DNA of 64,000 nt from a virus (taxonomy: Duplodnaviria; Heunggongvirae; Uroviricota; Caudoviricetes), in the IMG/VR virus record IMGVR_UViG_3300045988_150638; one strand, written 5' to 3'. This document shows, in pieces, positions 1,146-35,573 of this stretch. Numbering within the stretch: the stretch's first letter is position 1; every line of letters begins with the position of its first letter. Made by a program: the position numbers and the translations under genes. The notes beneath the pieces are model-generated. The model searched no databases, was not told the origin of the DNA, and worked only from the letters and a program-made list of their open reading frames with translations.

Positions 1146-1212
1146 GCAACAAATGACCGGTTGAGAAGTTACTTTGCATACCATTACCTCCTGACAACGT
1201 AGGAGGGAACTT

Positions 1213-11085: not shown

Positions 11086-11102
11086 AAATTAATTAGAGCA
11101 AT
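11086..11102 (-). promoter_or_regulatory. C1 repressor operator (ssb)
   Basis: minus strand reads ATTGCTCTAATTAATTT, 16/17 to the C1 operator consensus. Confidence 0.7.
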
Positions 11103-11126: not shown

Positions 11127-11146
11127 AACAAGTGATTTGCATTATC
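11127..11146 (+). promoter_or_regulatory. putative Lpa-dependent late promoter (lyz)
   Basis: AACAAGTGA followed by a -10-like CATTAT; the same 9-mer recurs upstream of prt and of the 49179 block. Confidence 0.3.
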
Positions 11147-11235
11147 CTGTGCCTTCTAAAGGGATCGAGTCAGTCGGTATTGGCTGTGAATGGGTGTTTG
11201 TCCTGGAGCGTAAAAAATTCGCTTATGAGGTCTTT

Positions 11236-11793
11236 ATGAAGGGAAAAACAGCCGCAGGAGGCGGTGCAATTTGCGCTATCGCGGTGATGATTACCATCGT
11301 AATGGGTAATGGCAATGTGCGAACCAACCAGGCGGGGCTTGAGCTGATTGGTAACGCTGAAGGTTGCCGACGTGATCCATACATGTGCCCGGCGGGGGTA
11401 TGGACTGACGGGATCGGTAATACACACGGGGTAACGCCGGGTGTGCGAAAAACCGACCAGCAAATCGCCGCTGATTGGGAAAAGAATATCCTGATCGCTG
11501 AACGCTGTATTAATCAGCACTTCCGGGGCAAAGACATGCCCGATAATGCCTTTAGTGCAATGACAAGCGCGGCATTCAATATGGGATGCAATAGCTTACG
11601 GACCTACTACAGCAAAGCGCGAGGCATGCGAGTCGAAACGTCCATCCACAAGTGGGCGCAGAAAGGGGAATGGGTGAATATGTGTAACCATCTCCCTGAT
11701 TTTGTGAACAGTAACGGCGTGCCCCTGCGAGGTTTAAAGATTCGCCGTGAAAAAGAACGCCAGCTTTGCCTGACGGGACTGGTCAATGAATAA
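11236..11793 (+). CDS. lyz: SAR endolysin Lyz (T4-lysozyme-like)
   Basis: 185 aa from the ATG at 11236 (ORF begins 11137); N-terminal Gly/Ala-rich SAR segment then an E...C...T catalytic triad pattern. Confidence 0.8.
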   Translation: MKGKTAAGGGAICAIAVMITIVMGNGNVRTNQAGLELIGNAEGCRRDPYMCPAGVWTDGIGNTHGVTPGVRKTDQQIAADWEKNILIAERCINQHFRGKDMPDNAFSAMTSAAFNMGCNSLRTYYSKARGMRVETSIHKWAQKGEWVNMCNHLPDFVNSNGVPLRGLKIRREKERQLCLTGLVNE

Positions 11794-12084: not shown

Positions 12085-14815
<2,731 letters not shown>

Positions 14816-24708: not shown

Positions 24709-24897
24709 AGCGCCCCCTATAAAAAAGAAAAGCCACCAGCGGCGGCTTAGCAATACAACTGAAGGTAGCGCCCGGTACTCAGACTGTGCCGTCCATGGAA
24801 TATTTGAAAAGGGATCCATCCGTACCGGGCATGTGATGATTCTGACTGAAGTCACTTGTAAGTTGTCAATTATTTCAGATTAAAAATAATATATTTA

Positions 24898-31804: not shown

Positions 31805-31889
31805 TTATGCTTCCTTTCGTAAAAACTCTTTTTGACGCGAGGGTAACGAAAGTCACATGTCAAAAGGCCCGGAACGGGCAAGCAATCAA

Positions 31890-32342
31890 TCAGATACGTG
31901 CGGATGTGGCATTACCGTAATGACGGTGCTGACGGGCTACCTTATTGAAAAGTTGACGCGCCATTACCCAAGGCTGGTGTTCCCGGCGTTCCTTTTCGTC
32001 CTGCGTCATATAGAGTTCGTTCTGGAGTTTTTCATCAAACCGGCGCGGCGCGCGGCTGCGGCGAAAGAATTCAGGATTCAGAGAGTGGATCTGAAATCTA
32101 CGTGGGCGTGTACTGTCATCAATCAAAACAGACGAATACTTAGACACAGCGATAGCCTTTAAGCGCAGATAAACATCGCGCTTATCGACATCCAGATGCG
32201 GGTATTCCTTTTCAAGAATTGCTGCGAGTTCTTTCGCTGATAGAAGAGATTTAGTGCGGATCATGTAATCCGCAATCTCGTACGATGTTATTCGTGAGTG
32301 ATTTATTTCCATGAAGTGGCGTCCCTGCCAGTTAAGTAACAT
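31890..32342 (-). CDS. lpa: Lpa late promoter activator
   Basis: 150 aa ORF downstream of a C1 operator and upstream of pacA, as in P1; start may be the internal MEINHS. Confidence 0.55.
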   Translation of the reverse strand: MLLNWQGRHFMEINHSRITSYEIADYMIRTKSLLSAKELAAILEKEYPHLDVDKRDVYLRLKAIAVSKYSSVLIDDSTRPRRFQIHSLNPEFFRRSRAPRRFDEKLQNELYMTQDEKERREHQPWVMARQLFNKVARQHRHYGNATSARI

Positions 32343-35145: not shown

Positions 35146-35573
35146 TTGCGTAACGACTATTATTTAACCAGCAAAGTAACTTTTAATTTTTTTTCTTTTC
35201 CCATTGATTTTTGTGCACAGCTTATCTGCCTTGCCGTGCGCAGAATCAACTTTTTTCTTCCTGATTTATCCACAAAGTTATGCACTTGCAAGAGGGCCAT
35301 TTTCTAAATATTGTGATGTTTCACAAATGAAATGAATTTTGATTAATGAAGATAAGGAGAAAATTTGAGATGCAATCATGACGTTAATAGATAGGGTCTG
35401 CATTACAGACCCCATCCGCATCAAGGAATTAGCCGTTCCCTGATGTTGTTCCGAAAACATGTGCCGTAAGCTCACGTTAACGACTTTCTTTCACCGAATC
35501 CAACTATATAGGGGTTGGGTTTCTACGTCAACGTGAGCAAGTGCTCCTTTACATTTGACAAGGAACCACCTTA

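Follow-up and report, generated by a model that had tools for sequence, protein, structure and literature searches.

Probable P1-type late promoters upstream of lyz, prt-pro and the gene 26 operon in a P1-like phage-plasmid

Three recurring elements in a 64,000-nucleotide stretch of Caudoviricetes DNA (hereafter, the window) are very probably late promoters of a P1-type phage-plasmid, namely LPlyz, LPpro and LP26, a reading to which we assign a probability of about 95%. Direct support for this assignment comes from the identity of the sites to promoters of phage P1, the presence in the window of the activator gene lpa, the excess of the motif over expectation, the placement of the sites upstream of and co-directional with late genes, the missing -35 and a box that persists in a diverged relative. 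Binding by Lpa, dependence on SspA and late timing are properties that we infer from the literature on P1.

The motif corresponds to the already published and GenBank-annotated P1 late promoter, so that an earlier note on this DNA, which had proposed Lpa-activated late promoters, correctly rediscovered it. Lpa/gp10-dependent late promoters of P1 were reportedly described by Lehnherr et al. in 1991/1992 and by Lobocka et al. in 2004. Because the feature is already described and annotated in P1, there is nothing new in the main finding; its value is that a genuine regulatory motif was recovered and correctly assigned from sequence alone. Biology beyond the P1 annotation is limited to three minor leads, namely an AC flank of the box, a match inside gene 7 and a different box in phage D6, each of which could refine the picture of DNA recognition by Lpa.

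Late promoters in the window and their P1 counterparts

Two 6-kb samples of the window align with Escherichia phage P1 (AF234172, AF234173, NC_005856) at identities of 98.4% and 98.8% and are similar also to P7, SJ46 and RCS47. For the first of these samples, 507 plasmid records, the majority from E. coli, match at 95–99.5% identity. On this likeness to P1 and these matches to plasmid records, the window is a P1-type plasmid prophage (P1-like phage-plasmid) and shares about 98% identity with P1. Its orientation is reversed with respect to the P1 record, and it runs across the origin of that record. As reference annotation we used GenBank AF234172, which was prepared by the authors of the P1 genome paper, and promoter positions were transferred from P1 to the window by pairwise alignment.

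The features 'late promoter', '-22 region' and '-10 signal' of the P1 record fall exactly on the three sites. In the annotated promoter, a '-22 region' of 9 bp with the consensus AAGTGACTT is followed after 4 nt by a TANNNT hexamer, without a -35, and the 4-nt spacing is fixed in 10 of the 11 P1 late promoters. More specifically, LPlyz occupies 11130-11148 on the plus strand (P1 20969-20987), with the box AAGTGATTT at 11130-11138, the spacer GCAT and the -10 TATCCT at 11143-11148, preceded by AC at 11128-11129. According to the P1 annotation and the open reading frame, it serves the endolysin gene lyz (11236..11793, plus strand), whose start codon lies 87 nt past the -10. LPpro, which drives prt-pro, is found on the minus strand at 14867-14849 (P1 17251-17269) and comprises AC at 14869-14868, the box AAGTGACTA at 14867-14859, the spacer GTGT and the -10 TAAATT at 14854-14849; the operon spans 12085..14806 on the same strand, with prt (portal) at 14806-13097 and pro (head processing) at about 13104-12085, again from the P1 annotation and the reading frames. 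LP26 is located on the plus strand at 49131-49149 (P1 78485-78503), with AC at 49129-49130, the box AAATGACTA at 49131-49139, the spacer GCGG and the -10 TAGAAT at 49144-49149. The baseplate/tail operon that it serves (49179..52287, plus strand) is assigned on the same two grounds and begins with genes 26 (49179-49556), 25 (49566-50783) and 7 (50787-51515), followed by 24 onward.

Each site aligns with its counterpart in AF234172 (LPlyz, LPpro or LP26) at every base, and the comparison with P1 that had been proposed showed the 19-bp cores of all three to be identical to the annotated ones. This agreement, together with lpa in the window, supports the proposed assignment to Lpa-activated late promoters. 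The placement before late genes was likewise right, as lyz, prt-pro and 26-25-7-24-6-5 all lie downstream in the same direction. For LPlyz and LP26, the P1 record notes identity to late promoters that had been identified earlier for genes 17 and 26; its LPpro, LPpmgL and LP23 are predicted promoters that were not mapped individually.

The 9-mer by which the sites had been recognized is present at all three, AACAAGTGA being exact at 11127-11135 (plus strand) and 14870-14862 (minus strand) and AACAAATGA standing at 49128-49136 (plus strand). This 9-mer overlaps the annotated P1 box, but its register is shifted 3 nt to the 5' side of the 9-bp '-22 region' (AAGTGATTT, AAGTGACTA and AAATGACTA). A hexamer does follow at each of the three sites, at a gap of exactly 7 nt rather than the 'about 6' given by the earlier note; the end given there for the lyz element, 11146, therefore cuts its -10 TATCCT (11143-11148) by 2 nt. 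The ACTAGT palindrome reported at prt exists, but it covers the end of the box and the spacer and is absent from the other two sites, and it was dropped as a feature of the motif. A -35 was sought at LPlyz, LPpro and LP26 at a spacing of 16–19 nt, and the best match to TTGACA did not exceed three of six positions, in agreement with the claim that none of the sites has one. The testable consensus that had been put forward is thus real but already exists as AAGTGACTT-N4-TANNNT, from which the proposed register and spacing deviate slightly.

Eight of the 11 P1 late promoters lie within the window, seven of them with unchanged cores (LPdar, LPlyz, LPpro, LPmat, LPpac, LPhot and LP26), while the eighth, LPpmgL, differs from P1 by one base pair; LPs, LPsit and LP23 lie outside. 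Five of those in the window, LPdar, LPmat, LPpac, LPhot and LPpmgL, had been missed by the earlier note. LPdar, the promoter of the lydA-lydB-dar operon, is found at 1166..1184 on the plus strand (AAGTTACTT tgca TACCAT) and matches P1 31212-31230 exactly. A second, degenerate box-like sequence, AACAAATGACCG, is seen at 1148-1159 on the plus strand, 18 nt upstream of the LPdar box. LPmat (24839..24857, minus strand; AAGTGACTT cagt CAGAAT) has a core that matches P1 2678-2696 exactly, and the TTGACA located 19 nt upstream of its hexamer belongs to an annotated sigma-70 promoter, Pmat. At position -3 of LPmat (window 24858-24860 region), T is found here and G in P1. LPpac, which serves the pacA-pacB terminase genes, is located directly downstream of lpa (31840..31858, minus strand; ATGTGACTT tcgt TACCCT) and is an exact match to P1 90475-90493. 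LPhot (35159..35182, minus strand) combines AAGTTACTT with an unusual 9-nt spacer and AATAAT and matches P1 86521-86544 exactly. The predicted LPpmgL (49121..49139, minus strand) is divergent and consists of the LP26 box read on the minus strand (TAGTCATTT) and a -10 at 49121-49126 that reads ATTATT here versus AATATT in P1; it is the weakest match to the consensus among the listed promoters. Separately, a perfect extended box (cac AAGTGACTA) occurs at 38982-38961 on the minus strand within the coding region equivalent to pmgS, followed by a poor hexamer, AAGGAT.

Motif statistics and alternative readings

Taken alone, the 9-mer is weakly enriched in the window, with 3 exact matches compared to 0.54 expected and 3 of 100 shuffles reaching 3. 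When one mismatch is allowed, 20 matches are found in the window compared to 15 expected, which is not a significant enrichment, and the signal is therefore carried by the composite motif only. The composite AACAARTGA-N7-TANNNT yields 4 matches compared to 0.03 expected, a count that none of 100 shuffles reached. Similarly, the degenerate published-type pattern AARTKAYTW-N4-TANNNT yields 4 matches compared to 0.14 expected, all four being annotated promoters. We also built an independent weight matrix from LPs, LPsit and LP23 alone, all three located outside the window. Among about 128,000 positions, its top five are LP26, LPpro, LPdar, LPmat and LPpac, with LPlyz at rank 11. Four positions score 16 bits or more, compared to 0.17 expected, and no more than 2 were obtained in any of 200 dinucleotide-preserving shuffles.

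Conservation was assessed in Cronobacter phage JK004. Strong matches to the P1 matrix precede its orthologues of mat, 23, R, 26, pacA, prt, lyz and pmgC, and in alignments of the regions upstream of lyz, prt and 26 the box and the hexamer form conserved islands amid diverged flanks.

These data bear on whether an A-rich 9-mer has merely recurred beside A/T-rich hexamers in intergenic DNA. Such a coincidence would fit the one-mismatch count of the 9-mer, which is not enriched (20 versus 15), yet it would leave unaccounted for the composite (4 versus 0.03), the recovery of the sites by a matrix built outside the window, their identity to annotated P1 promoters and their retention in JK004 while the flanks diverge. 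We consider chance repetition extremely improbable and, on the shuffling controls and the orthologous conservation, ruled out. The sites could also be ordinary activator-independent sigma-70 promoters, for example of the extended -10 kind, to which the upstream 9-mer is incidental. LPpro indeed has TGt immediately 5' of TAAATT, resembling an extended -10, LPmat carries a perfect TTGACA at 19-nt spacing, and several late operons also have predicted sigma-70 promoters in the P1 record. LPlyz and LP26, however, have neither a TG extension nor a -35, the box stands at a constant 4 nt from the hexamer in JK004 and in all but one of the 11 P1 sites, and the literature describes late transcription as Lpa-dependent. 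For these reasons the plain sigma-70 reading was rejected as very unlikely.

The element could also be an operator of C1 or of another repressor rather than an activator site. C1 operators are indeed nearby, Ossb at about 11086-11102 and O26 at about 49090-49106. As annotated, these are nevertheless separate 17-bp sequences, 25–45 nt upstream of the LPlyz and LP26 boxes, and they serve divergent early promoters; furthermore, no C1 operator is annotated beside LPpro. The three boxes do not fit the asymmetric 17-bp operator, and an operator function was rejected, with a likelihood that we place as low as that of chance. Because Ossb and O26 serve divergent early promoters, the intergenic regions of LPlyz and LP26 would combine early, C1-repressed control with late, Lpa-activated control. 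Nothing was found in this analysis that contradicts the assignment of the three sites to late promoters.

Shape of the Lpa element and a match inside gene 7

Among the ten P1 sites whose spacer is 4 nt long, nine have A at position -2 and nine have C at position -1, directly 5' of the annotated box, and the AC dinucleotide is present in 8 of all 11 P1 late promoters. LPdar is one of the few sites without this flank, carrying gAG instead. A 19-nt matrix that omits the upstream positions recovered the six best JK004 sites, and AC stands 5' of the box in all six. A mirror-image GT was sought 3' of the box and none was found; without symmetry on that side, the element looks like an asymmetric 11-mer. 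The conserved element appears to be AC-AAGTGACTT, which the 9-mer register of the earlier note had partly captured.

The four composite matches in the window include one that the earlier note had missed, on the plus strand at 50833..50854 (aac AAGTGACTG gtga TAACCT). This unannotated match covers codons 16-23 of gene 7, starting 46 nt past the start, and is identical in P1 at 76780-76801 (minus strand), where it is not annotated as a late promoter. The ninth base of its box is G, which is absent from all ten 4-nt-spacer P1 sites, and in the orthologous codons of JK004 the invariant T8 of the box is lost through a synonymous change. Given its location in coding sequence, the G at box base 9 and the loss of T8 in JK004, the site was not accepted as a twelfth promoter and is kept as a lead; its standing as a promoter is uncertain, and it is probably non-functional. 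In a CRISPRi study, roadblocks in genes 26 and 25 were unexpectedly non-polar on 7, 24, 6 and 5 (PMC10695390). An internal promoter at 50833-50854 could account for the sparing of 24-6-5 only, since gene 7 itself would still be affected, and the gene 7 site therefore does not explain this non-polarity in full.

We tentatively consider a broader proposal, rather doubtful as a whole: the Lpa element would be the asymmetric 11-bp AC-AAGTGACTT and not the symmetric 9-bp inverted repeat of the annotation, a twelfth, operon-internal P1 late promoter would lie inside gene 7 (50833-50854), and activator and box would co-vary within the Lpa family (in D6, AAATCACAnACT). If true, an asymmetric 11-bp element would imply an oriented, non-symmetric binding of Lpa.

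Lpa and comparison with related systems

The late promoter activator gene lpa (gene 10) is located at 31890..32342 on the minus strand, where it adjoins LPpac and pacA on their upstream side. It encodes a protein of 150 aa that is 100% identical to P1 Lpa and matches Pfam PF25716 (BPP1_LPA, 'Late promoter-activating protein') with E=3e-57. In one report (PMC1891329, citing Hansen et al. 2003), Lpa is described as a sequence-specific DNA-binding activator thought to contact E. coli SspA, and SspA as bound to RNA polymerase and not itself binding late promoter DNA. Expression of lyz comes after that of lpa (PMC8198154, PMC8201110).

By the literature on P1, the mechanism would be as follows. The early gene lpa, under control of the C1 repressor, would produce a sequence-specific DNA-binding protein. 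Each of the three late promoters consists of an activator box, annotated as a 9-bp imperfect palindrome centred near -22, separated by a 4-nt spacer from a sigma-70 -10 (TANNNT), without a -35. Lpa would occupy the box and, together with the host RNA polymerase-associated SspA as co-activator, would recruit or activate the sigma-70 holoenzyme at a promoter that is unusable without Lpa. Late in infection, the operons for lysis, head, tail and packaging would be turned on in this way.

The closest known system is P1 itself, in which LPlyz, LPpro and LP26 have the same 19-bp cores, downstream genes, spacing, missing -35 and activator (Lpa, 100%). There is no difference of substance, the element being about 98% identical to P1 and the departures comprising one base pair in the -10 of LPpmgL and T for G at position -3 of LPmat.

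JK004, whose Lpa is 67% identical to that of the window, has the same AC-AAGTGACTT box, 4-nt spacer and TANNNT before orthologous late operons, where they are unannotated. Unlike P1, it also shows matches ahead of its ppfA, pmgN and ssb orthologues (record positions 23671-23653, 69145-69127 and 83285-83303), genes to which the P1 record gives only predicted sigma-70 promoters.

Phage D6 (MF356679), with an Lpa homologue of 31% identity, follows a similar logic, with a conserved box just upstream of an xAxxxT hexamer. Its shared element, AAATCACA(A/T)ACT, is found before prt, lydA, R, 23, 7, pmgB, orf16, 26 and lysin genes. In contrast to P1, the box has another sequence and the spacing is 2 nt longer, the hexamer starting 6 nt after the 9-mer; a scan of D6 with the P1 matrix returned almost no P1-type boxes. 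The divergence of D6 Lpa together with the different box suggests co-variation of activator and box. The D6 element may already be included in the D6 genome paper. A profile search of genome contigs with the Lpa alignment returned near-identical relatives only and no further divergent footprints.

Beyond the Lpa family, the middle promoters of phage T4 offer a likeness of design. These promoters combine a MotA box near -30 with a sigma-70 -10, and the co-activator AsiA remodels sigma-70. As in the P1 late promoters, the -10 of host sigma-70 is retained, with the box of a phage activator in place of the -35; the two differ in that the T4 box lies near -30 and works with AsiA, and the P1 box near -22 with the host protein SspA. 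The Francisella PigR system, acting with MglA-SspA, governs a cellular virulence regulon through proteins and DNA sites unrelated to those of P1, but it shares the principle of a DNA-binding activator that works via an RNA polymerase-bound protein of the SspA family, and the Lpa/SspA pair of P1 has been cited as its precedent (PMC1891329).
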